DNA from: an uncultured Gammaproteobacteria bacterium
GTDB lineage: Bacteria > Patescibacteriota > Microgenomatia > UBA8517
Direction of reading: 5' to 3'
NCBI GenBank assembly: GCA_964427735.1
Contig: CAYRUS010000001.1
Coordinates: 162,173-226,172, forward strand
Length of the DNA: 64,000 bases
This document shows, piece by piece, positions 21,720 to 47,040 of this stretch (its first letter is position 1; each line of letters starts with the position of its first letter). The translations under genes and the position numbers were made by a program. The notes beneath the pieces are model-generated. The model did not search any database and was not told the DNA's origin. It was given only the letters and a program-made list of their open reading frames with translations.

Positions 21720-23267
21720 TTACCGAATATCTTCAACATATTTAAGAAGTTTATCAATAAATACTTCACTGGAATAATTTTTAGCCATTTTTTCCATATT
21801 TTTTGAATACATCTTCCATTTTTTTTCGTTTGATATAAAGTCAACTGTATTTTTAATTAACTCATCTGTATTTTTCCAAATTTGATTTTTGTCATTGGAT
21901 ACAGTCTCTTTCAGGCCTCCCTCACCATAAACAATCGGGACAGCTCCAGCGGCCATAGCTTCAACTGGAGTAATCCCAAAATGTTCCATTAATATCGGTT
22001 CATTCTTACTTTCACCATACCCGGCAGCATGCCAGTAAATTTTTGCAGCAGAATATAGCTTTTTAAGTTCATTAAACGGAGCTGAAATATGAAAGTAAAT
22101 TGGATAACCTTTTGCACTTTTTTTGATTTTTTCAACGTATTCTGAATGCCTCTCCCCTTTTGCAACTCCTCCAACTAAATGCAGTTCCCAAGAATTATCA
22201 ATTAATTTTTTGTCTACCATTGTTTTAAATACTTCAACTAAAACGTCTTGCTTTTTTGAATGTCCTCCCACAAAAAATCTTCCCACACTTAGAATATTAT
22301 TTTTTTTCTTGCCTGGTTTAAACTCTTGAACATCGACTGGCGGGTAAAGCACATCAGCATTTTCTTTCCAGTATTTCTTTGTCCAGTAAGCTGAAAACTT
22401 TGAATCTGCTAAAAACATATTATAAGTTGAAAGACCGGCTGCTGGTTTATAACCAGAACTGCCATAAAGTGCCATTTCAAATGCTGGTAAGTACCTTTTT
22501 ATGATATTCCATAAAAAATATCTATAGTTGAATACTGTCATACTCACCAAACCAAACCCTGATTTTAATTCTGTGTCATCAATGTTAATTTTTATGCTTA
22601 CCGCACTATCTTTTTGTCTTTTCGTCCCTTTTAGATCATACGCAAGAACATTATTTCCATGCTCAATGTATTTACCTGTCAAAATTATGCTTGAATCATC
22701 TGAAGTAAGGTTAATTGAATTTAATGACTCCAAGGTTAACTGTTCTGCATAAATTCTTATCTTAATCTGGAATTTTTCTGGAAGATTCCGCAAAACAAAT
22801 ATATTTTCTTTGCTTAACCATTTTCCTCCACGAACAATTACTTCGTCTATATGCTGAAGACCTTTTGTAACTTCTGGTATTATTAAGAATTTTCTTAAAA
22901 AAGGCAAGATTTTTTCATATTTAATAAAACCAAGTAAGGTTCTTTTTATAGGTGTGGGGAAAAGAATATAATAGATAGATTTCTTAGCTTTACTAGGCAG
23001 ATGATCCATGAAGCTGACATTTATAAATAAATCATATTCTTTCGTCTCAGGAGTCAATTTTTCATAAGATCTTTCTTTCCATTGAACCAATTCAACCTTA
23101 GAAAGATCCACTCCCATTTTTCTTTCTATTTCATTTATCTCAATGAATGAATTTGATATTAAGTCCACCTCATGTCCACTCTTAGAAAGAGTCTCTGCCA
23201 TTACACAAGCTACTTTTTCTCCTCCCCCCAACTCCCTTAACCATTTATCATAAATTCCAATTTTCAT
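21720..23267 (-). CDS. Glycosyltransferase family 4 with an inserted middle domain
   Basis: N-terminal MKIGIYDKWLRELGGGEKV and C-terminal EHFGITPVEAMAAGAVPIVYGEGGLKETV. At 515 aa it is longer than a typical GT4. Confidence 0.7.
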   Translation of the reverse strand: MKIGIYDKWLRELGGGEKVACVMAETLSKSGHEVDLISNSFIEINEIERKMGVDLSKVELVQWKERSYEKLTPETKEYDLFINVSFMDHLPSKAKKSIYYILFPTPIKRTLLGFIKYEKILPFLRKFLIIPEVTKGLQHIDEVIVRGGKWLSKENIFVLRNLPEKFQIKIRIYAEQLTLESLNSINLTSDDSSIILTGKYIEHGNNVLAYDLKGTKRQKDSAVSIKINIDDTELKSGFGLVSMTVFNYRYFLWNIIKRYLPAFEMALYGSSGYKPAAGLSTYNMFLADSKFSAYWTKKYWKENADVLYPPVDVQEFKPGKKKNNILSVGRFFVGGHSKKQDVLVEVFKTMVDKKLIDNSWELHLVGGVAKGERHSEYVEKIKKSAKGYPIYFHISAPFNELKKLYSAAKIYWHAAGYGESKNEPILMEHFGITPVEAMAAGAVPIVYGEGGLKETVSNDKNQIWKNTDELIKNTVDFISNEKKWKMYSKNMEKMAKNYSSEVFIDKLLKYVEDIR

Positions 23268-23269
23268 AA

Positions 23270-24565
23270 TTAAATAAACTTATTTACCTGCTTTTCATTT
23301 AATCGCGGCTCTCTTGAAAGTGATACTATGAATGGAAATATAACAGACAAAACAACTTTAAGACGTATTTTGAATCTATTTAGGTATTCTCTGGAAGATT
23401 GTGAACCTAGAAAATAGTAAGCAAGACTCCCAAAAGTATTACGAAAAATAAATTCCGTCAATTCACGCAAAGCCATGATTCTCGGCCATTGTTTTGCTAC
23501 AAACAATAGTCTGCTTCTTTCAACTTGATATATAAAAAAGTCAGACCACTCTTTACTGGAAGCTGAATGAATATGTCTAACCATTGCGTCTGGACAATAA
23601 TATACTTTCCAACCTGAATTTTTTAACCGCAAAGACAACTCACAATCTTCATAATACATAAAAAAATCATCGTCAAAATATCCCACTTCATTTAGTGCTT
23701 CCCTGTTTAATAAAACTCCTGCTCCACAAAAGGCTGGTATTTCCTCTTCTTTATCATATTGCCATTCATCAGCTTCATAATATTGTTTACCTTCTATTAC
23801 AACAGCTCCGCGATCTCTACCGTAACCTTTTTTAAATAGTATTGTGCCTGAGTTTTGAATTAAATCTTTTGATTCTTTTTCTAGTTGTCTTTTACTCATC
23901 TCGAGTTTAACAGTTTTTGGTTCTTCCTTTATATTGAACTCTCCTTTTTCAATTATTTTGTTATCAAGCAGTATCTCGTAACTCTTTCGTCCAGAGTTTT
24001 GAATATATAAATTGATTATTAACTTTTCATTATTTAACTTATAATTATATGGTATATATAAATTTTCTAAATATTCTCTTTTGTCATTAATAATCGTAAA
24101 AACATGCGTGTTTTTTGCCTGAACAGCTTTGGGAATATCTGCTTTTACTAAAGAAGCACCTTTTAAAGTTATTGGAATATATTTATCAAATAATACTAAT
24201 TTTGCATTTATTGCTCCTACTTTTTCTTTTTCATCCAATTTTTTATAGCAGTCTACTAATTTTTTCAAAAAATCATTATGAACTACAGTATCGTTATTTA
24301 GTAAAACAATAAGTTCACCTTGTGAGAACTTTATTCCTAAATTATTTCCACCTCCAAAACCTAAGTTCTTTTTAGATTTTATAACTTCAACATCTGGATA
24401 ATTATTTTTAATGTATTTAACTGAACCATCAGTTGAAGCGTTATCAACTACTATAACTTCATATTTATCTTGGGGATAATTTAAAGAATTTAAAGAATCC
24501 AGATAGTCACCTAGATATTTTTTACCGTTATAATTAACTGTAATTATTGATATAAACGGATGCAT
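23270..24565 (-). CDS. Glycosyltransferase family 2 with C-terminal extension (rhamnosyltransferase-like)
   Basis: ISIITVNYNGKKYL ... VIVVDNASTDGS ... LLNNDTVV. Confidence 0.75.
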   Translation of the reverse strand: MHPFISIITVNYNGKKYLGDYLDSLNSLNYPQDKYEVIVVDNASTDGSVKYIKNNYPDVEVIKSKKNLGFGGGNNLGIKFSQGELIVLLNNDTVVHNDFLKKLVDCYKKLDEKEKVGAINAKLVLFDKYIPITLKGASLVKADIPKAVQAKNTHVFTIINDKREYLENLYIPYNYKLNNEKLIINLYIQNSGRKSYEILLDNKIIEKGEFNIKEEPKTVKLEMSKRQLEKESKDLIQNSGTILFKKGYGRDRGAVVIEGKQYYEADEWQYDKEEEIPAFCGAGVLLNREALNEVGYFDDDFFMYYEDCELSLRLKNSGWKVYYCPDAMVRHIHSASSKEWSDFFIYQVERSRLLFVAKQWPRIMALRELTEFIFRNTFGSLAYYFLGSQSSREYLNRFKIRLKVVLSVIFPFIVSLSREPRLNEKQVNKFI

Positions 24566-24566
24566 A

Positions 24567-25292
24567 CTATTTTATTTTTCTAAACTTATTTATTATTTTA
24601 TCCGGCGCTCCGTTATCAATAATTTTCCCATTGTCAAGAAGTAGAACTCTGTCTGTAAACTTTTTAACTCCTTCCAAATCATGACTTATAAACACTATCG
24701 AAACTCCCTGTTTTTTAAATTCTCCCATCTTATCCATACACTTTTCCTGAAATGCCTCATCACCAACTGCAAGAATTTCATCTACCAAAAGAATGTCGGG
24801 GTTTGTGTGAATTGCAATAGAGAATGCAAGCCTCATATACATTCCAGAAGAATAATGCTTTACAGGAGTATCAATAAATTCAGCTAACTCTGAAAACTCT
24901 ACAATTTCATCAAATCTACTTTCAATGTAATTCCTATTTAAACCTAAAATAACGCCGTTCAAGTATATATTTTCTCTACCTGAAAGTTCAGGATGAAAAC
25001 CCGCACCTAATTCAATCAAAGGAGCTATTCTTCCATTTGTAACAACTTTTCCTTTTGTGGGTACAGTAACACCTGCTATTAATTTTAAAATTGTTGATTT
25101 ACCTGAACCGTTTGTGCCGATTATTCCTAGTGTTTCACCTTTTTTTAATTCAAAACTAACGCCTCTTAAGGCAAAAAAATCATCTGTTTGCCCAGGCTTG
25201 AAAATATCAAGCAAAGCTTCTTTTAGGAGAAGTTTTCTTCCTTTTTTGTATCTTTTATAGACCTTATCGAATTTGACAACTGAATCTTTCAT
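24567..25292 (-). CDS. Polysaccharide ABC exporter ATP-binding protein (Wzt/TagH/KpsT-type)
   Basis: Walker A GIIGTNGSGKST, signature YSSGMYMRLAF, Walker B ILLVDEILAVGD, plus a GRENIYLNG motif typical of the glycan-export subfamily. Confidence 0.85.
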   Translation of the reverse strand: MKDSVVKFDKVYKRYKKGRKLLLKEALLDIFKPGQTDDFFALRGVSFELKKGETLGIIGTNGSGKSTILKLIAGVTVPTKGKVVTNGRIAPLIELGAGFHPELSGRENIYLNGVILGLNRNYIESRFDEIVEFSELAEFIDTPVKHYSSGMYMRLAFSIAIHTNPDILLVDEILAVGDEAFQEKCMDKMGEFKKQGVSIVFISHDLEGVKKFTDRVLLLDNGKIIDNGAPDKIINKFRKIK

Positions 25293-25295
25293 AAA

Positions 25296-26063
25296 TTAAA
25301 CAACATCAGCAAAATAAACTGATTTTTTCTTAAAGTAAATATATCCAAAAATAAATATAATCAAAGAAAATCCAGTTGCATACAAAAACGATTGAGTAGA
25401 TGGGGGAAGTCCATACAATACAGTATTTCTATAAGCATTAATAATTCCTGACATTGGGTTAAGATTAAAAATCATTCTGTATTCGCCAGGCACAAGCTCT
25501 GGCGGGTATAGTACAGGAGAGATATAAAGCCACATAGTTATAAATACTGATATTACATTTTCAACATCTCTAAAAAAAACATTTATAGCAGATAGTATAA
25601 AAGATATTCCAATGATCAAAAGAAGTTGGATAAATAAAATAATAGGAACCCAGAGAACTGTAAGGTGTATTGTTACACCAAATGCAATCAAAATTGCCAC
25701 TAAAATTAATATTGATAAAAGAAAGTCAATAAACTTTGCAAATATAGAGGCCAAAGGGAATACTTCCCTTGGAAGTCTGATTTTTGTAATTAATGTTGAG
25801 TTTGCCACAAGACTACCGGTTGCATAAGTAATAGCATTAGCAGTAAAAAGCCAAGGCACAAGCCCAACAAATAAAAATACAGGATATGGTGTTCCCCCTG
25901 TTGGAATCCTCACTAAAAATGAAAATACGACTGTTAGCACTATTAAATTGATTAATGGCACTAAAATAACCCAAGCATAACCCAAAATTGATTGTTTGTA
26001 CTTAGCTTTAATTTCCCTTTTTACGAGCTCAATTAAAAGTTCTTTATAATTTGCGGCAAACAT
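25296..26063 (-). CDS. ABC-2 type polysaccharide exporter permease (Wzm/TagG-type)
   Basis: 255 aa with 6 TM segments, N-terminal ELVKREIKAKYKQSILGYAWVIL ABC-2 signature, immediately upstream of the ATPase. Confidence 0.8.
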   Translation of the reverse strand: MFAANYKELLIELVKREIKAKYKQSILGYAWVILVPLINLIVLTVVFSFLVRIPTGGTPYPVFLFVGLVPWLFTANAITYATGSLVANSTLITKIRLPREVFPLASIFAKFIDFLLSILILVAILIAFGVTIHLTVLWVPIILFIQLLLIIGISFILSAINVFFRDVENVISVFITMWLYISPVLYPPELVPGEYRMIFNLNPMSGIINAYRNTVLYGLPPSTQSFLYATGFSLIIFIFGYIYFKKKSVYFADVV

Positions 26064-26096
26064 TACTGTTTAGATTATAAACAAATATAGCTTTAA

Positions 26097-27371
26097 TCAC
26101 ACTATTTTTCTTAATTTTGACAAAAGATACTTAACATCAAAATTAAACATCATAAAGAAAAACAAAGAAATCAATAATCCCAAATTAGTGAAGATCGAGA
26201 CATAAATAATTTCTGAAATGTTAGAATTAAATATCATAATCCCTAATGCCTGGACAATAGCCGCTGAAAACAAGATATAGGCAGATTTAGTTTTATTCCT
26301 GGATATTAAATAGCTAACTGTATAAACATTTAATGCAAAAAGTCCTGCAAAAATACTGAAGATCAACAGATAAGGAGTCGCCTCCATAAATTCTTTTCCA
26401 AAAAGTATACCCACCGAAAATTCAGGAAATAATACATAAATTGCCATTACTACTAAAACAATAAATAAGGTAAAACCAAATCCCAACAAAAATAACAAAC
26501 CAGAAGGTTTGTTGCTTGAGGCTTTTTTACTTACCATGGGAAAAACAACGCCAATAATCGGATTTGCGCCAAAATAGATCACTTTACCCATTGCTGACAA
26601 TGCCGCATAGATACTTGCCTCATGCAAACTTAAAAAATATTTAGCCAGAATAATATCTGTTGAAAACATCGAAGTTAAAGAAAGTGTCATTATAAAAATC
26701 GGTAAAGAATAAGATAAAATATCCTTTTTAAAAAATATTTCAACCTCACCTTGCTTTATACCAATATCTTTTAGAAATTTCTTACTCATAAGAATTGACA
26801 CTATTATTGAAAATATCCAAGCAACAATAATCCCAAAGAGATTGAACCCTAAATAAATAAACATTATTCCAAAAGTTATTCTACCTAACCAGCCTAAATT
26901 ATTAATAAAAACACTTTCTTTGAATTTTAATAACCCTTGTAAAAATGAACTGTTCACCATTACATAAAATGACAAAACTATAATGAACGGAATAAGCAAA
27001 GCAATTCTATGATCAAGGTTGAGAAATTGTGCAAAAAAAGGTGAGACAATCAACAAAAAGATTAATAAAAACCCACTCCAGAAAAGTGATTTTTTTATTA
27101 TCCAATTATAAAACCTTGACACTTCATCCATATCTTTGCTTGAAACAATTTTTATTATCACAAGACTAAAAAATGTAAACAAAGAAGTTATTAAAGCAAC
27201 TAAAGATATAATAGCAGCAAGCTCTCCATATCCATCTTTACCCAAAATTCTTCCAAAAATAAGATGATATAAATACCCCAAAAAGTTAGCAAAATTTGTT
27301 CCTGCGATCATCAAAGCACTGCTTGAGAGTAAAGGATTATTTAGTACATGTTTAATTTTATCCTTAGGCAT
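26097..27371 (-). CDS. Wzx-type oligosaccharide flippase (MOP superfamily polysaccharide biosynthesis protein)
   Basis: 424 aa with about 12 TM segments. N-terminal LMIAGTNFANFLGYLYHLIFGRILGKDGYGELAAIISL, typical of Wzx/MurJ-like flippases. Confidence 0.65.
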   Translation of the reverse strand: MPKDKIKHVLNNPLLSSSALMIAGTNFANFLGYLYHLIFGRILGKDGYGELAAIISLVALITSLFTFFSLVIIKIVSSKDMDEVSRFYNWIIKKSLFWSGFLLIFLLIVSPFFAQFLNLDHRIALLIPFIIVLSFYVMVNSSFLQGLLKFKESVFINNLGWLGRITFGIMFIYLGFNLFGIIVAWIFSIIVSILMSKKFLKDIGIKQGEVEIFFKKDILSYSLPIFIMTLSLTSMFSTDIILAKYFLSLHEASIYAALSAMGKVIYFGANPIIGVVFPMVSKKASSNKPSGLLFLLGFGFTLFIVLVVMAIYVLFPEFSVGILFGKEFMEATPYLLIFSIFAGLFALNVYTVSYLISRNKTKSAYILFSAAIVQALGIMIFNSNISEIIYVSIFTNLGLLISLFFFMMFNFDVKYLLSKLRKIV

Positions 27372-27376
27372 ATGTA

Positions 27377-28156
27377 TTAGTTATTTATAAATTTAACAAC
27401 TCCAACTCTTCCCATATTATGTAACTTATGTAAACCTAAAATCATAGTATTACTTGTGTGTTTTTTTACAATTTCTTCATCTTCCAATAGTGTGCTCTTG
27501 AAATCAGTTGAGGAAATATTATCTCCGCTCATTCTAAAACTAGAAAGGTAGTCATCGATTACATAGGGCATTTCTATTTTGGCTAGTTTGAGCCAAAAAT
27601 CATACTCCATAACAAATTTATCTGTGCCTGTAAACGGTCCATACTTTTCATAGGCAGTTTTGCTTAAAAATACTGAAGGCTGAATTAAATAGTTAACCAC
27701 TAAAAGTAGATTATAGTTATTGATTTTTAACAAAACATTCTTGTACTGAGTTGTTGCTTTGGCGACTTCTATTCCTTTGCCATTTATTACTTTACCTTTA
27801 CCTGCAAGCCATAATGTATTTTTCTTAAAGTTATTTCCTACTTTTCTAAAAGCTCCTACTTCGTAAACATCATCTGCATTTATAAAAGTTAAAATATCTC
27901 CAGAAGCTTTTTTCAGCCCTTTGTTGATAGCGTCTAGTTGGCCTTTATCTTTTTTTGAGAGCCATTTTAATTTACCTCTAAACTTACTTTTATAACTTTT
28001 TATAATATCTATAGTCTTATCTGTAGATCCTCCATCTTGGACTATTACTTCGTAATTATCATAATTTTGCTGAAGTATAGATTCTAAAGTAATTCCAATA
28101 AACTTATCTTTATTGTATGAGGGTATAACTACCGATACTTTTGGCTCTTTAATCAT
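27377..28156 (-). CDS. Glycosyltransferase family 2
   Basis: VSVVIPSYNKDKFI ... VIVQDGGSTDKT ... INADDV. Confidence 0.8.
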   Translation of the reverse strand: MIKEPKVSVVIPSYNKDKFIGITLESILQQNYDNYEVIVQDGGSTDKTIDIIKSYKSKFRGKLKWLSKKDKGQLDAINKGLKKASGDILTFINADDVYEVGAFRKVGNNFKKNTLWLAGKGKVINGKGIEVAKATTQYKNVLLKINNYNLLLVVNYLIQPSVFLSKTAYEKYGPFTGTDKFVMEYDFWLKLAKIEMPYVIDDYLSSFRMSGDNISSTDFKSTLLEDEEIVKKHTSNTMILGLHKLHNMGRVGVVKFINN

Positions 28157-28160
28157 GAAT

Positions 28161-28514
28161 TTACTTTTTCTTTGGAGGATTGCTTTTTTTTGTATCTTTT
28201 ATTGCTAATGTCCTAACTAGTTCTTCCAACTTTTTTTCTAGTTTTCTTGTTCTAACGTACATTACTGCAGACATGGAAATAACTATTAAAAAAGCAACCA
28301 CAACCATTAAATCAAACAGCCTAGTAATTAAAAAATTATATGATACTGTTCTAAGCAGTTCCGGAAATACAACAATAAAAGCAGTTCCGATCCAAATTAA
28401 TGCCCAAGAATAAAACTCCCTTTTGTTTATTTCTCCTTTTTTGTAATTTACTAATGAAAAATAAATCATAGATAATGAGAACACTATCCCAATAATTTGT
28501 AAACCTATTATCAT
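28161..28514 (-). CDS. Small membrane protein (DUF2304-like / GtrA-like accessory of polyprenyl-phosphate GT2)
   Basis: 117 aa with 3-4 TM segments and a basic C-terminal tail. Translationally coupled to the DPM1-like GT2 upstream (4-bp overlap). Confidence 0.5.
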   Translation of the reverse strand: MIIGLQIIGIVFSLSMIYFSLVNYKKGEINKREFYSWALIWIGTAFIVVFPELLRTVSYNFLITRLFDLMVVVAFLIVISMSAVMYVRTRKLEKKLEELVRTLAIKDTKKSNPPKKK

Positions 28515-29206
28515 ACTCTAAATCTCCAAGCTATAACATCAAATAAAACTTTAAATGCATCAAGAATCGATACTCCTTTGTACTTATCATAGTATACGGT
28601 CTTAACCGGCACTGTACAAAATTTTATCTTATACATTCCCACCTTAGCTATCATTTCTGTTTCTATCCCATACCCTGTTGAGGATAAATTTAAATTCTCA
28701 TAGCCTTTTTTAGTTAAAGCCCTATAACCACACAACAAATCATTAACTCTAATTCCAAATAGCATTTGAACTAAAAGACTACCAATTTTGTTACCCATGA
28801 ACCTAACAAAAGGGACACCTTCAGTTAAATTTCTTTCTCCGATTATAACGTCGTATTTTCTCTTTTTTAGAACATCTATAAATTTTTGCAAATCTTCAAT
28901 TTTATGCTGTCCATCAGAGTCCATAAATATAACAGCTTTCGCATTGTTTTCAAAAGCATACTCAGCACCTGTTCTCATTGCTGCTCCTTTGCCCAAATTC
29001 ACTTTGTGGTGCAACACAGTTAGCTTTTTACTTTTTAGAGCTTGTCTTGTTTTGTCTAGTGAGCCATCATCGATAATAACTACTGGATAATTGATTTTCT
29101 TTATATCTTTTAAAAAACGCCTGATAGTCTTTTCTTCGTTATAAGCAGGCACAACAATCCATATATTCATTATGATATTGTACTTTTTTTGATTAATACT
29201 TACCAA
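28511..29206 (-). CDS. Polyprenyl-phosphate sugar synthase (GT2; DPM1/GtrB/ArnC-like)
   Basis: 231 aa short GT2: WIVVPAYNEEKTI ... VVIIDDGSLDKT ... FMDSDGQH (DxD) ... catalytic-region CGYRAL. The size and motifs match dolichyl/undecaprenyl-phosphate glycosyltransferases. Confidence 0.75.
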   Translation of the reverse strand: MVSINQKKYNIIMNIWIVVPAYNEEKTIRRFLKDIKKINYPVVIIDDGSLDKTRQALKSKKLTVLHHKVNLGKGAAMRTGAEYAFENNAKAVIFMDSDGQHKIEDLQKFIDVLKKRKYDVIIGERNLTEGVPFVRFMGNKIGSLLVQMLFGIRVNDLLCGYRALTKKGYENLNLSSTGYGIETEMIAKVGMYKIKFCTVPVKTVYYDKYKGVSILDAFKVLFDVIAWRFRV

Positions 29207-30208
29207 TCAGGAGCGATTTTGGATGTACCAGTGGATAGTTTTAGCAAGACCCTCATCAAAGCTAGTTGAAGAAATAAAGCCAAATTTTTCAGCAGCCTTC
29301 GAGGTATCTAATTTACGTCGAGGCTGTCCATCTGGTTTAGAAGTATCCCAAGCAATTCTACCTGTAAAACCAACTAGATTTTTTATTTTTCCTGCTAACT
29401 CACGAATTGAAATTTCACAACTACTGCCAACATTAATAGGATCAGAATCATCATAAAATTGTGCAGCCAAAAGTATTGCTTCAGCAGCATCTTCAACATA
29501 CAAAAACTCTCTTGTTGCACTTCCGGTTCCCCAAACTACGACTTCATCTTTTCTTGACTCCTTCGCATCGACAAATTTTTTAATAAGAGCTGGTATTACA
29601 TGGGAAGACTCAGGATCAAAATTATCACCAGGACCATAAAGATTAACTGGAAGCAGATATATACTTTCCAATCCATATTGATTTCTATAAGCATCTCCCA
29701 AAACAAGAAGCATTTTTTTTGCAAGACCGTATGGTGCATTCGTTTCTTCTGGATACCCCATCCATAAATCTTCCTCTTTAAAAGGAACTGGAGTGTTTTT
29801 GGGATACGCGCACACTGTCCCTGTTATTACAACTTTCTTTACTTTAGCCTCATTTGCCACCTGCAAAACGTTCATACCCATAATCATATTATCCTTAAAA
29901 AGCTCTACAGGATAATTCATGTTATAACCAATTCCGCCTACGTTTGCGGCTAGATGCACTACAATATCTCCACTTATTACTTTTCTTGCACTTTCTAAAT
30001 CTCCTAAATCATATTCTTTCGAAGAAAAAGTAACGATCTCCTTTGGGCTATATTCTCTTAGTTTTGCTACTAAATGACTACCTAAAAACCCAGTACCGCC
30101 AGTAATTACAACTCTTTTTCCTTCCCAAAATTCCATTCTTTCCATGCTTCTTGGTAGATATTTTGCTTCTATTCCTGGAAGTTTTTTTCTGCCTTCTTCT
30201 GTACCCAT
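29207..30208 (-). CDS. fcl: GDP-L-fucose synthase family (GDP-4-keto-6-deoxy-D-mannose 3,5-epimerase/4-reductase, Fcl/WcaG-like)
   Basis: Collinear with the E. coli Fcl sequence as I recall it: GTVCAYPK (Fcl GSSCIYPK), ETNAPYGLAKK (PTNEPYAIAKI), NLYGPGDNFDPESSHVIPALIKKF, VVVWGTGSATREFLYVEDAA, INVGSSCEISIRELA, DTSKPDGQPRRKLD. The true start is probably an internal Met (MERMEFWEGKRVVITGG); the ORF carries a 21-aa N-terminal extension. Confidence 0.8.
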   Translation of the reverse strand: MGTEEGRKKLPGIEAKYLPRSMERMEFWEGKRVVITGGTGFLGSHLVAKLREYSPKEIVTFSSKEYDLGDLESARKVISGDIVVHLAANVGGIGYNMNYPVELFKDNMIMGMNVLQVANEAKVKKVVITGTVCAYPKNTPVPFKEEDLWMGYPEETNAPYGLAKKMLLVLGDAYRNQYGLESIYLLPVNLYGPGDNFDPESSHVIPALIKKFVDAKESRKDEVVVWGTGSATREFLYVEDAAEAILLAAQFYDDSDPINVGSSCEISIRELAGKIKNLVGFTGRIAWDTSKPDGQPRRKLDTSKAAEKFGFISSTSFDEGLAKTIHWYIQNRS

Positions 30209-30253
30209 ATGCGATGTTTATTTTATACTTTTAGTTCATTTTTACAAGAAGAG

Positions 30254-31435
30254 CTATGCAATCCAATATCCTCTTATAAAAAGAGACAGATAAATAAATT
30301 GAAGTATGACACAAACAATAGACAATAATTTAAGTTGTGTCTTGGATAATGAAGATACAATTAATGGAAATATTGGAAACAAAACAAGAGAATATCTTGG
30401 CATTGATGAAAATGTTCCAGTAAGTGTGGGCACAAGTAAAGCAATAAAAATAAAAACTAAATAACTAAGACGGATATTCTTGTACAACAAAAATATCAAT
30501 ACAAAAGGTATAGTACCAAAGATAAACTCAGATAAAATATTAAAAAAATGCAAGCTTTTTAAATCAACTGAAAAAAGCATCTTAAAATATCTATAAATTA
30601 CTTGAGGATAAGGAACCAGAGGAATTGCACTTCTCTCAGCACCAAAGCCTGGTTGAGCTGAAAGAAAATACAGAGGGTCACCGTGCGCTTCATTCAAATA
30701 AAGCATATATATAAAAAGTCCTAAGGGAGCGATTAGAAAGCTTAAGAAAACAATTGCTTCATTTTTAACATCATTCTTTTTCTTTTGCAAATAAAACTCT
30801 ATTATTAATGCAAAAATAAGAAGGATACCTATTATTTTTGTCGCAGATGCAAGGCTTGCAAAAACACCTGAAACTAAAAATTTTCCTTTTCGAGCAAAAT
30901 ATAAACTTCCAGCTGCCAAGAATAAAAACAACGATTCCGTATAAATCGCCCCAAAATAAAAAGAAACAGGAAAAGCCAATAACAAAATCACTGAAAGAAA
31001 TGACGTGTTTTTATTGTTGTCTATTTTATAAAGTTTATAAACAAAAATTAATCCAGCCAAAAAAATTAAATTTGAAAGTAATAAGCCTGAATAAAAATAA
31101 GCAGGATCAACAAATATATCAGTATCTAAAGACAAATTTTTGGGAATAAATTTTGAAAATAACCTTATTAAAAAAGGAAAAAGAGGGAAAAAAGCTTCTG
31201 TATATTCTGAGTTATAACCGTTTTGTGCAATCCGTAGATAATGGACACCATCAAAATTACCAAAACCCCAAACCCAATTAGGTAAGCCTGTAATTTCTAA
31301 CGCAGTATCAGCATATGGAAATCTATTCCCAAAGACTGGAATAAAATAGATTGCAAACATCGCAACTACAAAAAGTACTATTCTCCAAGAAACAAAATAA
31401 AAAAATATTTGTCTAATCTCTAAGTAATTTTTCAT
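30254..31435 (-). CDS. GT-C membrane mannosyltransferase-like protein (PIG-V / GT76-like family)
   Basis: 393 aa polytopic. The motif NFDGVHYLRIAQNGYNSEYTEAFFPLFP matches the D-x-x-H/W-Y-L-x-I-A-x-x-G-Y ... AFFPL signature I associate with PIG-V-type mannosyltransferases. Confidence 0.45.
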   Translation of the reverse strand: MKNYLEIRQIFFYFVSWRIVLFVVAMFAIYFIPVFGNRFPYADTALEITGLPNWVWGFGNFDGVHYLRIAQNGYNSEYTEAFFPLFPFLIRLFSKFIPKNLSLDTDIFVDPAYFYSGLLLSNLIFLAGLIFVYKLYKIDNNKNTSFLSVILLLAFPVSFYFGAIYTESLFLFLAAGSLYFARKGKFLVSGVFASLASATKIIGILLIFALIIEFYLQKKKNDVKNEAIVFLSFLIAPLGLFIYMLYLNEAHGDPLYFLSAQPGFGAERSAIPLVPYPQVIYRYFKMLFSVDLKSLHFFNILSEFIFGTIPFVLIFLLYKNIRLSYLVFIFIALLVPTLTGTFSSMPRYSLVLFPIFPLIVSSLSKTQLKLLSIVCVILQFIYLSLFIRGYWIA

Positions 31436-32540
31436 AAACTTTTATAGTCTCGTTGGCTGTTTTATTCCAAGAATACTCTTTTGATTTAAGAACACCTTTC
31501 TCCACAAGATCTTCTTGTAATTTTTTATCTTTTACAACTTTGCTAATTTTATTTGCAAAATCGCTGATTTTTTTAGGATCAGCGTATATTGCAGCGTTAC
31601 CTGCTACTTCTCTATGCACTTTTATATCTGAAGCGACAACAGGAGTGCTGCATGCCATAGCCTCTAATAGAGGAAGTCCAAATCCTTCGCTATAAGAAGG
31701 CTGACAGTATACTGAAGCTAAATTATAAATAGCTACTAACTCCTCATCTCTCACATATCCAGTCAAAACTACATTCTCATCTAAAATAAGCCTTTTTAGA
31801 TCGGCTATGTGCACAAGTTCGGGATGAGGTTTATCAAACATAAACCTTACGTAATCCATCGGACCTTGAATACTATATTTAAATACAGGACTTTCTGCTA
31901 CATCCTTTGCATGTTTACCCACAATAACAAGAGGTAAACTTACTTTCTTTGATGCCTCAATTAAAGTACTCAAATTTTTGTTGTAATTTACATCACCAAC
32001 ATAAAGAACAAATTTATCTGGTAAAGAAAATTTCTTTTTGACAGCATTTAGCTTTTTCTTGTCTTCAACCTTTTTAAAACTACTATTGGCTGCTAAATAT
32101 GTGACGAATATTTTATCTTTAGGAAATTTCAAATGTTTTACGATATCATTTTTAGAAGCTTCCGAAATTGTTATGGCAGCGTCAACTTTTTTAAGCCGGG
32201 ATATGTTTTTGATTAAATTTATTTTTCCTTTAATTCCCGCAGGATAATTTAAAGGATAATTAAGTGGTATTAGGTCATCAATTGTTATTATTGTTTTTGA
32301 TTTAAATTTTTTGTTTGGAAGACTTAAAAAATATGGGTGAAACTGTGTAAAGTGCAAAATTTCATATCCTTCTAGCTTGTTTTTGTTAAAATCAATTGAT
32401 TTAATATCAAAATTTTTATTCTTATTTTTTAGGTGATCTGTTAATTCTTTTACCTGTACGCCAATACCTCTTATGCTATGACCACTAGCAAGCGCGGATA
32501 TATCAATTGCTACTTTTAATTTTTTATTACTACTTGGCAT
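31413..32540 (-). CDS. Glycosyltransferase family 4
   Basis: YSEGFGLPLLEAMACSTPVVASDIKVHREV. Confidence 0.8.
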   Translation of the reverse strand: MPSSNKKLKVAIDISALASGHSIRGIGVQVKELTDHLKNKNKNFDIKSIDFNKNKLEGYEILHFTQFHPYFLSLPNKKFKSKTIITIDDLIPLNYPLNYPAGIKGKINLIKNISRLKKVDAAITISEASKNDIVKHLKFPKDKIFVTYLAANSSFKKVEDKKKLNAVKKKFSLPDKFVLYVGDVNYNKNLSTLIEASKKVSLPLVIVGKHAKDVAESPVFKYSIQGPMDYVRFMFDKPHPELVHIADLKRLILDENVVLTGYVRDEELVAIYNLASVYCQPSYSEGFGLPLLEAMACSTPVVASDIKVHREVAGNAAIYADPKKISDFANKISKVVKDKKLQEDLVEKGVLKSKEYSWNKTANETIKVYEKLLRD

Positions 32541-33407
32541 TTAATTACGTATATATCTCATATAAGCACGAGGAAACCTAATCGCAGAAAAAAAGGAAAA
32601 AACTATTCCTTGATATCCATCTAATATTCCCTTGTGTCTTATCTGAGTCATAAAAAACCATCGAAGCGGCTTTATTATCATATATTTAATAAATGTAGAT
32701 AAATCTTTTTTTGTTTTATTGTCTTTTAACTCCTTAACCATCAATTTGATGTACCTGTCGTTTCTCATAATATACCTTTTAAAAGTTGGGTCCGCCATAT
32801 GAATAAGAGGATTTTGCAGCCAGCCTACTCTCCCATCCACAACAATTTGCTCGTGTACATCCTTTGCTGGAAAATAAGCCTTCCCATTTTTAATCAGACG
32901 TATAACCCCATCCGGATAAACACCACCATACCTTAAATATTTTCCCAGAAAATAATTTAATCTAGGGACAAAAAATCCTGCGTATTCTCCTACATTTTTG
33001 CCAATTTTTCCATCACGTTCTTCTATTAGTTTTGTGTGTCTATCAAACAGCTTTTTTTCTCTTAAAGATTTTTGATATTTTCCAATATCTTTATCTTCCA
33101 TTTGAATAATTTTTATTATTTCTTCAGATAATTCTTTACTGACAATTTCATCTGCATCAAGTTGGAGAATCCACTTATTTTTTGCTTTTTCCAAAGCTTT
33201 TTGCTTATTGATATGGAAAATTTGTTCATTTCTTACTTTATACACTTTTGCACCTTTTTTCTTGGCAATTTCCCTTGTTTTATCTTCAGATGAACCATCA
33301 ACTATAATAATTTCATCAGCAATATCTTTAACTGAATTCAGACATTTACCTATATTTTCTTCTTCGTTAAATGTTGCTAATACAACTGATAGTTTGTTTT
33401 TATTCAT
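32541..33407 (-). CDS. Glycosyltransferase family 2 (same subfamily as 16039..17022, 51483..52244 and 53222..54121)
   Basis: LSVVLATFNEEENI ... IIIVDGSSEDKT ... LQLDADEIV; C-terminal GKYLRYGGVYPDGVIRLIKNG segment. Confidence 0.8.
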   Translation of the reverse strand: MNKNKLSVVLATFNEEENIGKCLNSVKDIADEIIIVDGSSEDKTREIAKKKGAKVYKVRNEQIFHINKQKALEKAKNKWILQLDADEIVSKELSEEIIKIIQMEDKDIGKYQKSLREKKLFDRHTKLIEERDGKIGKNVGEYAGFFVPRLNYFLGKYLRYGGVYPDGVIRLIKNGKAYFPAKDVHEQIVVDGRVGWLQNPLIHMADPTFKRYIMRNDRYIKLMVKELKDNKTKKDLSTFIKYMIIKPLRWFFMTQIRHKGILDGYQGIVFSFFSAIRFPRAYMRYIRN

Positions 33408-33408
33408 T

Positions 33409-35007
33409 TTAATAAGTACTTACTATATAAAATGCTTCACCAATTTGACCTGGAAATTCAATTGGTTTTTGTGTTTTGAAAAAATCTTTGTACCTTAAAC
33501 CACTATACTGGCTTGGCGTCACAATATAAAGCTGACCATCTATAGGTGGACTTTCGATTGGATCCCAATTCCCAAAATTATATTTATCAAATGATTCTAT
33601 AGTATTATAACTTTTACTTTGGTTTTGATCGTATTTTAGAGAAGACAAAAGTTCTGGCAATGGGTACTGAAGGTAATACAGGAAGAAAATATAAGGTTGA
33701 CTACGTTCTTTTGTCATGTACACCTTGTGATAGTCTGGATTATCTTCCACGAATTGGACAATCTGTTTCATTCCGTATTGCCAATCATGAGGGTTCATAC
33801 GAGGATAATTTATTAGGTAATATGAATATGTATAAAGTGACTGAAATATAAAACAAGCTAAAATCACAAATAATGAAGCTGCCTCAATTTTTTTGTTTTT
33901 TGCTAACCTACTAAATCCCGCCACACCAACTGACGCCAATAATTGAGGAGGGCCGATCATAAATATAGACCTGGTTGAGTTTGCAATGTTGGTAGAAATT
34001 GCTCCTGGGAATGGAGCTATCAAAAGCCAAAAGAGCAATAAAATTAATTCCTTAAACTTCCTTTGGGAAAATAAAACAAAAATTCCAATAAAAGAGAATA
34101 TAACTACAACAACACTAAATTGTCCTTTGTCACCTATAAACCCTCTTGGATTTTGGTCACCACGAAATACAAGATAATCTAATGAGAAATATTCCTTGTA
34201 GTTTTTTAAAGATAATTCTAACTGCCCTAGATATTCATTACCAGTATTTTGGAATAGTATTGTTTCATTAATTAAATCGCTCGAGAACTTAGTTTGATTT
34301 GCTCTAGCAAGACCTAGCAATCGAGGCTCTATCACCAACAAGAAAATGAAAAACAAAAAAACTCCTACAGAAATAAATGACAACTTTTTTAATTGAAAAA
34401 GTTCTTTTGTATATAAAAGTACAAGTAATGGTACAAACAAAAACACAACAATTTTTGCAGAATGGTATGAAAGCAAGCTCACCCCAAAAAATCCAAAAGC
34501 AAGTGGTAAAAGATAGTTTTTCCTTTCTAATCCATGAAAAAACAGAGCAAACCCCGCTATGAAGAAAAAAAGCGCAAAGTTAGCTTCCCATAAACCTCTA
34601 GAATAGTGAATATGATAAACACTCAAAGCAAGGAAAATAGCAGATAAAAATGCCACTAACCTATTATTAAATAATTTATTTGCTAGTAGATAAATAAATA
34701 AAATAGTCAAACTTCCAAAAATAGCTGAAGGTAACCTCGTTGTAAAATCGTTTACTCCTAAAAATAAATAGAAAATAGAAGTTATATAAATGTGTACAGG
34801 ATGTTTATCATCCCTAAATGATGTAAAAACTAGTGGTAAAGTATCTCCCCATTCGTCTTTACCCCAATTTTTGATAGTAAAAGCGTTATAAGCTGCGGCT
34901 GCTTCATCCCAATTGAGAGAAGGAGGAACTGAAGTTATTTTAAATACTCTTAATATCCCTGCAATTATTACTATAGCTATTAAAATATATAAATATTTTT
35001 TATTCAT
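33409..35007 (-). CDS. GT-C membrane glycosyltransferase, PMT/ArnT-like (tandem paralog 1 of 4)
   Basis: 532 aa polytopic; N-terminal loop PPSLNWDEAAAAYNAFTIKNWGKDEWGDTLPLVFTSFRDDKHP. Confidence 0.7.
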   Translation of the reverse strand: MNKKYLYILIAIVIIAGILRVFKITSVPPSLNWDEAAAAYNAFTIKNWGKDEWGDTLPLVFTSFRDDKHPVHIYITSIFYLFLGVNDFTTRLPSAIFGSLTILFIYLLANKLFNNRLVAFLSAIFLALSVYHIHYSRGLWEANFALFFFIAGFALFFHGLERKNYLLPLAFGFFGVSLLSYHSAKIVVFLFVPLLVLLYTKELFQLKKLSFISVGVFLFFIFLLVIEPRLLGLARANQTKFSSDLINETILFQNTGNEYLGQLELSLKNYKEYFSLDYLVFRGDQNPRGFIGDKGQFSVVVVIFSFIGIFVLFSQRKFKELILLLFWLLIAPFPGAISTNIANSTRSIFMIGPPQLLASVGVAGFSRLAKNKKIEAASLFVILACFIFQSLYTYSYYLINYPRMNPHDWQYGMKQIVQFVEDNPDYHKVYMTKERSQPYIFFLYYLQYPLPELLSSLKYDQNQSKSYNTIESFDKYNFGNWDPIESPPIDGQLYIVTPSQYSGLRYKDFFKTQKPIEFPGQIGEAFYIVSTY

Positions 35008-36517
35008 TCTTATAAATTATAAAAGCTTCTTCACCTTTTAAATCACTTATAGTTTTTACCTGTTTATAATCTATATTAATATCTGGGGGAATTATTAGTA
35101 AAGAATTTTCTTCTAATTCAACATTTTCATTTGAGATAAATTTATACTTTCCGAATGATTCAACAGTAGAAACTCCCCATTTATCCGGTGGATTATAATT
35201 AACTTCATTCCAAAAAGATTCCGGGTCATATTTATTATAAAAAAGAGTAAATATATATGGTTGACCGTACGTATCCGCTACATGGACTTCATTAAATTCT
35301 TCGAAATTAATACTTTCAGAAAAAACTTGCTTGTAAGGGTATTGCCAATCTAAAGAAGTGGTTTTATTGTAATCAGTTAAAAACTTCTGAAAATACACTA
35401 AAAATGACAAAAACAAAGTAAATATAAGCACAAAATGAATGTATTTCGGATAGTTTTTCTTAACTAATAATGCTCCTGCACCTATAGCAGATATAATAGA
35501 AAAAGAAGGAGCCATTAAAATAGCTCTTAAGGCATGCGGAGATTCTCTTGTGATAGCAGCAGGAATGGGTGCAACTAATAGTAAGGCAAATGGAAGAAAA
35601 TATCTCCCTTTTTTCTTGAAAGTAGTATAAATCCCCACCACAACCAAAACTGATTCCATTAAATAAAGTTGTCCAAATCCGGGAATTTGACTTCTAGGGT
35701 TTGAGTCTCCATCCACAAACAAAAACGTTGGGTTAAAATGTGACATATAATTATTACCAAAATAAAAAATTTTATCTTTAAAAGTATCACCTTCAAGACC
35801 AATCGCTTGTAATCTACTTCCACCATAGTCTTGAAAATAAAGTTTTGTAATAGGCAATAAACTAATAACAAAAACTAAAAATGAAATAATTAAATACTTG
35901 TTTTTTATGATATTTGCTTTCTCTTTAATCAATTGAAGTGCAAATATAAACAAAATACTAATAGGGACAATAACTCTAAAACTATTGTAGTTATATATAC
36001 TTGCTATCCAACTTAGTACTACTAGCAAAAAATATTTAGAATTTCCCCAACTACTTAAAGAGAAAAATATACCTAATAGATAAAAAGCCAAACCTGCGGT
36101 TGCTTCATACCCAGTTCTTGAAAATATAAAGGTCCAAGGAGAGATAATGGATAAAAACAATGCATATAACCCAATAGTATTACTATTAGTTAGTTTTTTG
36201 GTGATTAAATATACTAAAATTACAGCAACAAAAGAATAAATCACAGAGGGCAGTCTTACTGAAAATTCATTTAAACCAAATAATGCAATAAAAGGAACAG
36301 CAGAATATATATACAAAGGAAGCTTAAACTCTCCAAATGCTCTAAAATGAAGAGGAAGAAACTCTCCCCATTCATCACTCCCTGTCTTTAATACTGAATA
36401 TGCGTTATATCCGATAGATGCTTCATCCCAATAAACAGAAGATGGTATTTGATTGATTTTATACAAACGAGTAAACAAAAAAAGTAAAACAATAAACCAA
36501 AGGAAATACCTCTTCAC
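35000..36517 (-). CDS. GT-C membrane glycosyltransferase, PMT/ArnT-like (tandem paralog 2 of 4)
   Basis: 505 aa; SSVYWDEASIGYNAYSVLKTGSDEWGEFLPLHFRAFGEFKLP. Confidence 0.7.
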   Translation of the reverse strand: MKRYFLWFIVLLFLFTRLYKINQIPSSVYWDEASIGYNAYSVLKTGSDEWGEFLPLHFRAFGEFKLPLYIYSAVPFIALFGLNEFSVRLPSVIYSFVAVILVYLITKKLTNSNTIGLYALFLSIISPWTFIFSRTGYEATAGLAFYLLGIFFSLSSWGNSKYFLLVVLSWIASIYNYNSFRVIVPISILFIFALQLIKEKANIIKNKYLIISFLVFVISLLPITKLYFQDYGGSRLQAIGLEGDTFKDKIFYFGNNYMSHFNPTFLFVDGDSNPRSQIPGFGQLYLMESVLVVVGIYTTFKKKGRYFLPFALLLVAPIPAAITRESPHALRAILMAPSFSIISAIGAGALLVKKNYPKYIHFVLIFTLFLSFLVYFQKFLTDYNKTTSLDWQYPYKQVFSESINFEEFNEVHVADTYGQPYIFTLFYNKYDPESFWNEVNYNPPDKWGVSTVESFGKYKFISNENVELEENSLLIIPPDINIDYKQVKTISDLKGEEAFIIYKNE

Positions 36518-38163
36518 TTTACCTCCACTATTTCAAATACCGGTTTCCCATCAAGGAAATAAAAAGTCTCAACTATATTAGCATCTGTTGGAAAATCTCC
36601 AGGCTTACCTACAACTAATATATCTTCATTTGGGTATTTGTTAATGATATCTTGATACTTTGTGCCTTCATCTCCTAAGTCAGGAAATAAAAATTTACCA
36701 AAGCTTTCTACCCAAACCCAATCATGAGATTGATACCTCTTTAAATTCGGATCTGTTTGGAAAGAATCTGGTGGATATTGTAAATAAAACAATGCAAAAA
36801 TATGAGGTTCTCCATAATGTCTCGTAACTACAATTCGATCATAATCTGTAATCCTAGGTTCTATAAAATCATAAACCTGCTTATATCCATATTGCCATTC
36901 TCTTGAGTATGCAAAAGGATAAATAAAATAATAATTAAATAAATACAAACTAAATTGAAACATAAAAACAAAAATTACTAGTGACCATACCGAAAACTGG
37001 TATACTCTTTTTTTGTCTTTGAGATACTTATATGCCTTGTATAATCCATAGGCAGAAATAAGTTGAAAAACAGGCAATGCTATTAAAGTTCTTAAAGCAT
37101 GGGGAATTGTATCGCGGGTCGTCGCTGCAGGTATAATTGAAATTACCAACCAAATTATCAAAATCCATCTATACTTAGATTTATCTTTAAACAATAGGTA
37201 AGCTCCAATAACTAAAAACGGTGCTTGTATCCAGAATAACTCACCTATTCCTTGAACATGGTGATGCTTGTGTTCTGCACCCCTTAAAAATAAAAATTGA
37301 GGACTGAAGTGAGATAGATAATTCTTTGCAAAATAATATGATATATATACTGGTCTGTTGTGGATTAAATTGGTGATTAAACCTGAAAGTTCGGACTCAT
37401 TTCTTCTCTCTTCAATTCTTGGCACGAGACCTGGGTCAGTGGTAATACTAACTAATTCATATCTAGCAGAACCCTCCCCACTTAAAACAAAAGGCACTAA
37501 AGGTAGCAATAATATTAAAAATAATCCACCTGCGAGTAAAAAATAATTTTTAAATTTGAGTATTTCCTTTTGATATACTGCTGCAGTTATCAAAAGAAAA
37601 ATTGGCACAAAAAATCTTGCACTATTGTAGGTATAAACTGCAATCGCAAAAGGAACTGCACTTACTATCCACCACCTCTTATCAGTATTGAAACCACGAA
37701 CAAGAAACCAAACCCCCAACAGTACCCAAAATAAAGAAAAAGAAGATTCAAAAGACGCGCGAGTCAACTGAATATGCCAAACTGAAGTCGCCATTAAAAA
37801 GGCAGTGAAAACCCCTATTTTTTTATTTGAAAATATTTCTTTAGCTACAAAATACGATAATAAAACAGTCAAGGTTCCATAAACAACTGGTGTTATCCTT
37901 ACCCCAAATGCATTAAGACCAAAAAATGCAATCCCCGGAATTGAAGCGTATATTTGAGCTGGAAGCTTATATTCTCCGAAAGATCTAAAATGTAAAGGTA
38001 AAAAACTATTCCACTCGTCTTTACCTGTTTTTAGAATAGAATAAGCGTTATAGCCAATAGACACTTCATCCCAATTGAGTGATGGAGGAATTTCAGTCAC
38101 CTTATTAATTCTTAATAAAAATCCAAGTAAAGCAACTAAAACAATTATCAAAAAGTTTCTCAT
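36514..38163 (-). CDS. GT-C membrane glycosyltransferase, PMT/ArnT-like (tandem paralog 3 of 4)
   Basis: 549 aa; PPSLNWDEVSIGYNAYSILKTGKDEWNSFLPLHFRSFGEYKLP. Confidence 0.7.
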   Translation of the reverse strand: MRNFLIIVLVALLGFLLRINKVTEIPPSLNWDEVSIGYNAYSILKTGKDEWNSFLPLHFRSFGEYKLPAQIYASIPGIAFFGLNAFGVRITPVVYGTLTVLLSYFVAKEIFSNKKIGVFTAFLMATSVWHIQLTRASFESSFSLFWVLLGVWFLVRGFNTDKRWWIVSAVPFAIAVYTYNSARFFVPIFLLITAAVYQKEILKFKNYFLLAGGLFLILLLPLVPFVLSGEGSARYELVSITTDPGLVPRIEERRNESELSGLITNLIHNRPVYISYYFAKNYLSHFSPQFLFLRGAEHKHHHVQGIGELFWIQAPFLVIGAYLLFKDKSKYRWILIIWLVISIIPAATTRDTIPHALRTLIALPVFQLISAYGLYKAYKYLKDKKRVYQFSVWSLVIFVFMFQFSLYLFNYYFIYPFAYSREWQYGYKQVYDFIEPRITDYDRIVVTRHYGEPHIFALFYLQYPPDSFQTDPNLKRYQSHDWVWVESFGKFLFPDLGDEGTKYQDIINKYPNEDILVVGKPGDFPTDANIVETFYFLDGKPVFEIVEVK

Positions 38164-38180
38164 AAAATCCTCAAAAAAAA

Positions 38181-47034: not shown

Positions 47035-47040
47035 AAAATA

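Follow-up and report, generated by a model that had tools for sequence, protein, structure and literature searches.

A putative DUF2304-type two-subunit polyprenyl-phosphate sugar synthase in the glycan-assembly region of an uncultivated Microgenomates-like bacterium

Three close-packed genes at 27377..29206

We analyzed a 64,000-nucleotide stretch of contig CAYRUS010000001.1 (hereafter, the window), which stems from an uncultivated, Microgenomates/Woesebacteria-like lineage of the Candidate Phyla Radiation (CPR) with a small genome (~760 kb) and consists almost entirely of glycan-assembly genes. Our subject is the module at positions 27377..29206, where three close-packed open reading frames (ORFs) lie on the minus strand: GT2a, a glycosyltransferase of family 2 (GT2); a small membrane protein of the DUF2304 family; and GT2b, another GT2 enzyme, which the title of an earlier, sequence-only reading of this segment did not name. 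The stop codon of GT2a (TGA) and the start codon of the DUF2304 gene (ATG) share 4 nt (gtATGAta), and this ATGA overlap bears out the translational coupling that had been proposed for the pair. Between the DUF2304 stop and the GT2b start there are likewise 4 nt. A scan of 23000..36000 detected no terminator within the module and fewer promoter-like sites than in shuffled sequences. The features discussed here are collected in Table 1.

The glycosyltransferase gene had been placed at 28511..29206. The ORF exists; its start, however, had been set too far upstream. The longest reading of GT2a, 231 aa, begins at TTG 29206, directly after the stop of the upstream gene. The 120 GT2a homologues listed are all 213-239 aa long, and nearly all of them 217-229 aa, and where identical contigs had been annotated independently, the gene was called at 219 aa. 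These homologue lengths and gene calls support a start at ATG 29170 (MNIWIVVPAYNEEK) and mark TTG 29206 as an artefact of longest-ORF calling.

GT2a and its small membrane partner

GT2a matched the Pfam family Glycos_transf_2 with 98.6 bits, and its best NCBIfam match was PpgS (NF058614; 128.6 bits, model positions 2-220 of 226), with AglJ next. When a profile built from 36 homologues was searched against the PDB, the dolichyl-phosphate mannose synthase (DPMS) of Pyrococcus, PfDPMS, came first (7.8e-22; residues 1-216 against 23-250, i.e., the whole catalytic domain), followed by GtrB (3.7e-15), one unrelated glycosyltransferase entry, and ArnC (8.8e-11). An AlphaFold2 (AF2) model of GT2a (pLDDT 86.6) gave a concordant picture, as Foldseek returned ArnC and GtrB on top (E 1e-13, TMq 0.72-0.80). 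The motif DxDxQ has been proposed as a hallmark of polyisoprenyl-phosphate glycosyltransferases (PMC10821137). It is the form in which the catalytic DxD is present in GT2a (D84-S-D86-G-Q88), where it is invariant in the 36 homologues and aligns with D89/D91/Q93 of PfDPMS. By hydropathy, GT2a contains no hydrophobic or transmembrane (TM) segment, and its C-terminal end is an amphipathic helix (residues 202-218) rather than the TM anchor that had been suggested. Together, these results support the placement of GT2a with the polyprenyl/dolichyl-phosphate glycosyltransferases, as the sequence-only reading had it, and not with processive synthases. We also attempted to deduce the sugar specificity from the ranking of PpgS, AglJ, DPMS, and GtrB; the ranking gave no inference, and the attempt was abandoned.

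The small protein matched PF10066 (DUF2304) with 70.4 bits (E 1.7e-19, gathering score 25.5) over profile positions 2-104 of 106, confirming the likeness to DUF2304 that had been suspected. Hydropathy placed three TM segments at residues 1-19, 36-57, and 66-87. In the AF2 model (18 homologues, pLDDT 84), a hairpin (3-25/31-49) and a short helix (51-60) precede a long helix (63-111) that continues the third TM segment into a basic cytoplasmic tail. Of the "three to four" TM segments predicted earlier, three stand, together with this long C-terminal helix; a fourth does not. Since loop 1 contains 4 lysine or arginine residues and the C-terminal tail 12, the protein is predicted to have its N terminus outside and its C terminus inside. 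Across 18 homologues at 39-62% identity, 15 columns are invariant, and the conserved motifs are FPELLR, R..FD.M, and the C-terminal LEKKLEELVR. A search of 5.8 billion proteins yielded 114 homologues, all with PF10066, and the DUF2304 profile reached 1345 representative clusters at E<=1e-3. Judged from its sequence, the ORF is a real gene under selection, and relatives already carry the NCBI label "DUF2304 domain-containing protein." PDB sequence searches, with the single sequence and with a profile, gave no match for the DUF2304 protein, nor did tblastn against plasmids.

Small DUF2304 proteins have been characterized as partners of polyprenyl-phosphate glycosyltransferases in three systems. 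In Streptococcus pyogenes, the DUF2304 protein GacJ (113 aa) forms a detergent-stable complex with GacI, a GlcNAc-P-undecaprenol synthase, and stimulates it, and GacK (Wzx) and GacL (a GT-C glycosyltransferase) finish the pathway (10.1101/180810). The window pair resembles GacI/GacJ in having a TM-less GT2 directly before a DUF2304 protein of ~115 aa with three TM segments. It differs in its very distant host (CPR versus Firmicutes), in the additional GT2 coupled downstream, and in GT-C enzymes that are PIG-V-like or PMT_2 and not GacL-like; the sugar in group A Streptococcus (GAS) is GlcNAc.

For Mycobacterium tuberculosis, a passage of PMC9671496, citing Skovierova 2010, has Rv3632 assisting PpgS (Rv3631), and the mycobacterial pair is co-transcribed (10.1101/180810). 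Rv3632, with 114 aa and TM helices at ~4-21, 30-48, and 68-85 (PMC6487176), shows the same three-TM pattern as the window protein, and PpgS is the best NCBIfam match of GT2a over its full length; the mycobacterial GT-C is Rv3779. The homologous set of Corynebacterium glutamicum additionally needs a GT2, cgp_0396 (PMC9671496), which parallels GT2b.

In the lactococcal system, in which WpsA/WpsB is the GlcNAc-P-C55 synthase and WpsJ the GT-C, WpsB raises the activity of WpsA, a protein devoid of TM segments; the AF2 model published for WpsB shows a four-helix layout whose C-terminal helix touches WpsA, and a WpsB-WpsA fusion is active (PMC10821137). There, the sugar-P-C55 serves as a primer that cytoplasmic glycosyltransferases elongate, Wzx flips, and the GT-C transfers (PMC10821137). 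The two-subunit synthase, the four-helix small subunit, and DxDxQ are all shared with the window pair, the difference being that the window organism has no known rhamnan; WpsA/WpsB is the best functional template for GT2a, DUF2304 protein, and GT2b.

The GtrB/GtrA/Gtr(type) and ArnC/ArnE-F/ArnT systems follow the same logic, from a cytoplasmic polyprenyl-phosphate GT2 via flipping to a GT-C, and GtrB, ArnC, and DPMS are the nearest solved structures of GT2a and of GT2c, a second such enzyme in the window (see below). GtrB and ArnC, however, have C-terminal TM helices of their own, and GT2a and GT2c have none. In the eukaryotic DPM synthase, a TM-less DPM1 is tethered and stabilized by a small membrane subunit (DPM2/DPM3) via a cytoplasmic helix; the likeness of the DUF2304 protein to DPM3 is one of analogy only. 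The window pair shows the defining architecture of the GacI/GacJ, PpgS/Rv3632, and WpsA/WpsB family.

We considered what the DUF2304 protein might contribute. Being small, polytopic, and next to a GtrB-like GT2, it could be taken for the equivalent of GtrA, i.e., a small flippase for the sugar-phosphate lipid rather than an activator or anchor, as the earlier description of a "Gtr-like" module implied. Within the window no dedicated small flippase was found, and those acting on the PpgS product have yet to be identified (PMC9671496). Yet a Pfam search of the DUF2304 protein returned no match to GtrA (PF04138) at E<=0.01, DUF2304 not being a homologue of GtrA, and it has three TM helices and not four. 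Nor does the window hold a GtrA-like ORF, the DUF2304 gene being its only credible small multi-TM ORF, and two Wzx-type flippases are already encoded there. Characterized DUF2304 homologues are activators or anchors, not flippases, and co-purify with and stimulate their synthases (10.1101/180810; PMC10821137); a docking role would also agree with the fusions to cytoplasmic GT2 domains that occur naturally or were engineered (PMC10821137). The equation with GtrA does not hold up, and a flippase role is, in our estimate, very improbable.

We instead propose, with a probability of roughly 0.75, that GT2a and the DUF2304 protein constitute a two-subunit polyprenyl-monophosphate sugar synthase of the GacI/GacJ (PpgS/Rv3632, WpsA/WpsB) type. 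For this claim we draw on the domain identities, motifs, and fold described above and on the coupled, conserved synteny described below; complex formation, activation, and the lipid acceptor would carry over by analogy from the characterized homologues. The relation to GacI, GacJ, WpsA-C, and PpgS was drawn through Pfam and NCBIfam models and through gene pairs of Streptococcus suis and Priestia. GT2a, a soluble-looking GT-A enzyme, would be the catalytic subunit, and the DUF2304 protein would hold it on the membrane in the correct orientation and stimulate it, in effect providing in trans a membrane domain that in GtrB, ArnC, and archaeal DPMS is present in cis.

Several observations weigh against this proposal. 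The 128.6 bits of GT2a fall below the PpgS equivalog cut-off of 370, and because of this difference GT2a is, by its score, a homologue and not an orthologue of PpgS, whose GalNAc specificity would not be transferable. Two polyprenyl-phosphate synthases are few for the ~17 polytopic GT-C-like proteins of the window, and the Wzx and ABC genes beside the module were not detected at that position in related loci. Among the top 150 DUF2304 representatives there is a single fusion, and its GT2 part is of the GT2b and not the GT2a type. Finally, in the Foldseek search with GT2a, the soluble enzyme GpgS reached similar TM-scores, and GpgS and DPMS came close behind ArnC and GtrB. Together with the missing TM segment, this could make GT2a a soluble GpgS-like GT-A enzyme whose acceptor is a protein or a small phosphorylated compound, its adjacency to DUF2304 being functionally meaningless. 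In sequence searches, however, polyprenyl-phosphate glycosyltransferases rank first and GpgS reaches only 26.5 bits; DxDxQ is present, and adjacency to a membrane family with proven partners of the polyprenyl-phosphate type is strict. We give this possibility hardly any credence.

Table 1. Features of the module, its conserved neighborhood, the adjoining export genes, and the second gene pair
Feature	Coordinates	Strand	Size	Matches and remarks
GT2a, putative TM-less polyprenyl-phosphate glycosyltransferase, GacI/PpgS/WpsA type	28511..29170	minus	219 aa
DUF2304 small membrane subunit (putative), GacJ/Rv3632/WpsB type	28161..28514	minus	117 aa
GT2b, ordinary cytoplasmic GT-A GT2	27377..28156	minus	259 aa	Pfam GT2 97.4 bits
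GDP-L-fucose-synthase-like short-chain dehydrogenase/reductase (SDR), Fcl/GMER family	29207..30208	minus		NCBIfam GDPFucSynFcl 293.8 bits, cut-off 500
PIG-V-like GT-C	30254..31435	minus	393 aa	candidate extracytoplasmic transferase; ~10 TM; Pfam Mannosyl_trans2 55.7 bits (cut-off 22.4) and a PMT_2 match
GT4	31413..32540	minus		Pfam; upstream part of conserved block (31413..35007)
GT2	32541..33407	minus	288 aa	Pfam; upstream part of conserved block
PMT_2 GT-C	33409..35007	minus	532 aa	Pfam; upstream part of conserved block
Wzx-type flippase	26097..27371	minus		Pfam Polysacc_synt
ABC-2 permease	25296..26063	minus		Pfam ABC2_membrane
ABC ATPase	24567..25292	minus		Pfam ABC_tran
GT2c, ALG5/DPMS/ArnC-like GT2	61631..62389	minus	252 aa	TM-less
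PMT_2 GT-C directly downstream of GT2c	60021..61607	minus	528 aa	~9 TM; Pfam PMT_2 58.6 bits, PMT 36.5 bits

Conserved gene order and the place of GT2b

A pattern scan with one genome per GTDB species returned 25 related loci, all from Woesebacteria, Microgenomates, Daviesbacteria, or unnamed Patescibacteria metagenome-assembled genomes (MAGs). Neighbors were scored with phmmer, using the window proteins against all ORFs of the 25 loci. A GT2a orthologue (226-288 bits) ended <=~70 nt from the DUF2304 start in 24 of the 24 evaluable loci, and the 4-nt overlap of the two genes recurred in many of these. GT2b lay <=100 nt downstream of the DUF2304 gene in 18/23 evaluable loci and somewhere downstream in 21/23; L015 and L020 lacked it, and in L018 and L021 it was displaced. 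An Fcl-like gene was found in 20 of the 25 loci, usually abutting GT2a, and a PIG-V-like GT-C in 19, while a 6-kb flank contained the GT4 in 21/25, the GT2 of 288 aa in 15/25, and PMT_2 in 11/25. The usual order comprises eight genes: PMT_2, GT2 (288 aa), GT4, PIG-V-like GT-C, Fcl-like gene, GT2a, DUF2304, and GT2b. The groundwater relative ACD_13C has a gene order identical to this block, and an AbiEii-family toxin gene lies within its glycan cluster, just 3' of the conserved block (L003:12388-13047). Many of the GTDB representative MAGs that carry the block (L008, L009, L011, L018, L022-L025, and L027-L029) are titled "uncultured Gammaproteobacteria bacterium," which looks like a placeholder or a wrong taxonomic label. 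This conserved block offers an entry point to the surface glycoconjugate of these episymbiont-like bacteria.

Pairs outside the CPR were reached by tblastn of GT2a against plasmid records. In S. suis, a GT2 (31% identical to GT2a) is followed by an annotated DUF2304 protein (22% identical to that of the window) and then by another glycosyltransferase, which is not a homologue of GT2b. A Priestia megaterium plasmid (NZ_CP092390.1; L036:3983-6674) carries a GT2 and a DUF2304 gene, a pair recognized at only 18% identity, followed by an EamA-family transporter of 122 aa and a GT39, a compact four-gene set that resembles a minimal, mobile glycosylation system. In Cetobacterium somerae (NZ_CP092520.1; L037:4001-8663), the gene after a GT2a-like GT2 encodes a membrane protein of 93 aa that is not DUF2304 but a "lipid-A-disaccharide synthase N-terminal domain" protein; GDP-mannose 4,6-dehydratase (Gmd), a sugar dehydrogenase, and a GT39 come next. 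Possibly, the 93-aa protein takes the place of DUF2304 as the small partner of such a synthase.

GT2b itself is most similar to TuaG, WcaA-like proteins, and a chondroitin synthase domain, not to polyprenyl-phosphate glycosyltransferases, and has no DxDxQ. Its link to the DUF2304 protein comes from the fusion mentioned above: P0468 (382 aa), the only long protein in the top 150 DUF2304 representatives, carries DUF2304 at residues 1-108, and the remainder is 36% identical to GT2b over the full length of GT2b (E 2e-50), with marginal similarity to GT2a. Since its cluster (P0468, P0504, and P0505) comprises three members of 382 aa that differ in sequence and come from three contigs, the DUF2304::GT2b fusion is not a one-off assembly error. 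At the fusion locus (L038:5422-6570), a GT2a orthologue (45% identity) lies directly upstream and an Fcl-like SDR gene downstream. The fusion links GT2b physically to the DUF2304 protein. The reverse arrangement, with DUF2304 C-terminal to a GT2 as in the GtrB-like order, was considered and rejected; in published fusions and in the one found here it is N-terminal (PMC10821137).

This fusion raises the question of whether GT2b, rather than GT2a, is the true partner of the DUF2304 protein, with GT2a a separate enzyme that has only the operon in common with them. The order of DUF2304 followed by GT2b does match the N-terminal GacJ of known fusions (PMC10821137), and the only fusion seen among the top 150 DUF2304 representatives is of the GT2b type. 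Set against this are the invariable adjacency of GT2a in the evaluable related loci, compared with a GT2b that is absent from two and displaced in two; the recurrence of GT2a-type/DUF2304 pairs without a GT2b homologue outside the CPR; and the GT2a orthologue that still stands directly upstream of the fusion gene. We consider a GT2b-only partnership improbable.

Returning to the two-subunit synthase of GT2a and DUF2304 protein, its product could be elongated before export or used as it is. In a route like the lactococcal Wps pathway, the sugar-phosphate lipid would be extended on the cytoplasmic side by GT2b, and perhaps also by the GT4 and the GT2 of the block; the extended lipid would be flipped by the adjacent Wzx-type protein, and the product would be moved outside by the PIG-V-like and/or the PMT_2 GT-C. 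The adjacency of GT2b in 18-21 of 23 loci, the natural DUF2304::GT2b fusion next to a GT2a orthologue, and the neighboring Wzx-type gene are points in support, and by analogy the coupling of GT2b and the fusion would fit the lactococcal primer model.

Alternatively, and as the sequence-only reading had it, the product may be a monosaccharide donor only, which one or more GT-Cs use directly in the manner of GacI-GacJ-GacK-GacL or PpgS-Rv3632-Rv3779, with GT2b acting on an unrelated acceptor. The PIG-V-like and PMT_2 GT-C genes belong to the same conserved block, the GAS and M. tuberculosis systems operate in this way (10.1101/180810; PMC9671496), a Wzx-type protein serves a monosaccharide lipid in GAS, and the minimal Priestia plasmid has the layout GT2-DUF2304-EamA-GT39. 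Counting against direct donation, most relatives keep GT2b in translational coupling with DUF2304, three sequences have the two fused, and a GT4 and another GT2 are also part of the block; furthermore, lactococcal WpsA/B is the same synthase serving as a primer enzyme (PMC10821137). The coupled GT2b, the fusion, and the adjacent Wzx fit a Wps-like primer route and donor supply to GT-Cs equally well. On balance, we favor elongation by GT2b before export, to which we assign an even chance, and regard use as a monosaccharide donor only as a tentative alternative of lower probability.

A GDP-derived 6-deoxyhexose likely enters the product at some step, since the Fcl-like neighbor is both conserved and coupled. 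The Fcl-like ORF has an N-terminal extension of ~24-30 aa outside the family model, with the NCBIfam alignment beginning at residue 30, and its relatives are 298-317 aa long; its true start is therefore probably M22 or M25.

A more speculative extension, which we rate as unlikely, is that in Microgenomates-type CPR the DUF2304 protein is a membrane docking hub that holds both GT2a and GT2b. If so, a GT2a-GT2b assembly line would build an oligosaccharide on polyprenyl monophosphate, possibly with a GDP-derived 6-deoxyhexose, which the PIG-V-like GT-C would transfer outside the cell, and the DUF2304::GT2b fusion would be the Rosetta-stone trace of a complex that was not predictable for lactococcal WpsA/B-WpsC. 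The fusion hints that DUF2304 proteins organize more than one glycosyltransferase, a point that work on the lactococcal and corynebacterial systems had not settled.

The role of the DUF2304 family is already published, and there is no new kind of system here; a full-text literature search found no description of a GT2a/DUF2304 module in CPR/Patescibacteria. What the assignment provides is a concrete role with experimental precedent for a gene annotated as a domain of unknown function and for its neighbor.

A second gene pair and the rest of the window

The sequence-only reading had also pointed to an ArnC/ArnT-like pairing of GT2c with the GT-C next to it. The adjacency and the logic were borne out: the GT-C is a PMT_2 protein, GT2c is very well conserved (65-76% identity), and PMT_2 GT-C genes flank its homologues in 4/4 relatives examined, so that both gene pairs described in that reading co-occur in related genomes. 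Against the PDB, GT2c matched DPMS (2.8e-16), GtrB (4.8e-15), and ArnC (5.9e-15). Orthology to ArnC, however, failed. PgfS and ArnC were its top NCBIfam models, both far under cut-off (ArnC 67.2 versus 529 bits), and its motif is DMDQA, not DxDxQ. Hydropathy detected no hydrophobic segment and no C-terminal TM helices in GT2c, and no small membrane partner adjoins it. Some JGI records label its homologues dolichyl-phosphate beta-glucosyltransferase. These results support a resemblance of the pair to ArnC/ArnT in logic only, not in orthology. PDB sequence searches with a PMT_2 GT-C, as with the PIG-V-like GT-C of the conserved block, returned no match.

The window has a GC content of ~31%, and nearly all of its glycan-assembly genes lie on one strand. 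It encodes ~17 large polytopic (GT-C-like) proteins. The PMT_2 gathering score is reached by eight of them and narrowly missed by a ninth (43704..45377); PIG-V-like, GT87, and PTPS_related are each matched by a single ORF, and five have no Pfam match. GT2a and GT2c are the only proteins in the window that resemble polyprenyl-phosphate synthases. Four diverged PMT_2 paralogues (28-33% identity) form a tandem array at 33409..39809, and three PMT_2/PTPS_related paralogues (28-37% identity) form another at 43704..48756. Two of the polytopic proteins without a Pfam match, at 39876..41873 (plus strand, ~13 TM) and 54619..56385 (minus strand, ~11 TM), are 30% identical to each other; further ORFs of this kind lie at 14210..15898, 17811..19850, and 62426..63964.

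Downstream of GT2b lie a Wzx-type gene, which encodes one of the two Wzx-type flippases of the window, and an ABC-2 exporter pair; these genes beside the module may be specific to the source genome. A Gmd gene was not seen anywhere in the window; a ManC-like gene is located at 211..1299. A GT2 of 431 aa at 23270..24565 has its domain split by an insertion of ~170 residues, the Pfam matches covering residues 6-109 and 278-362.

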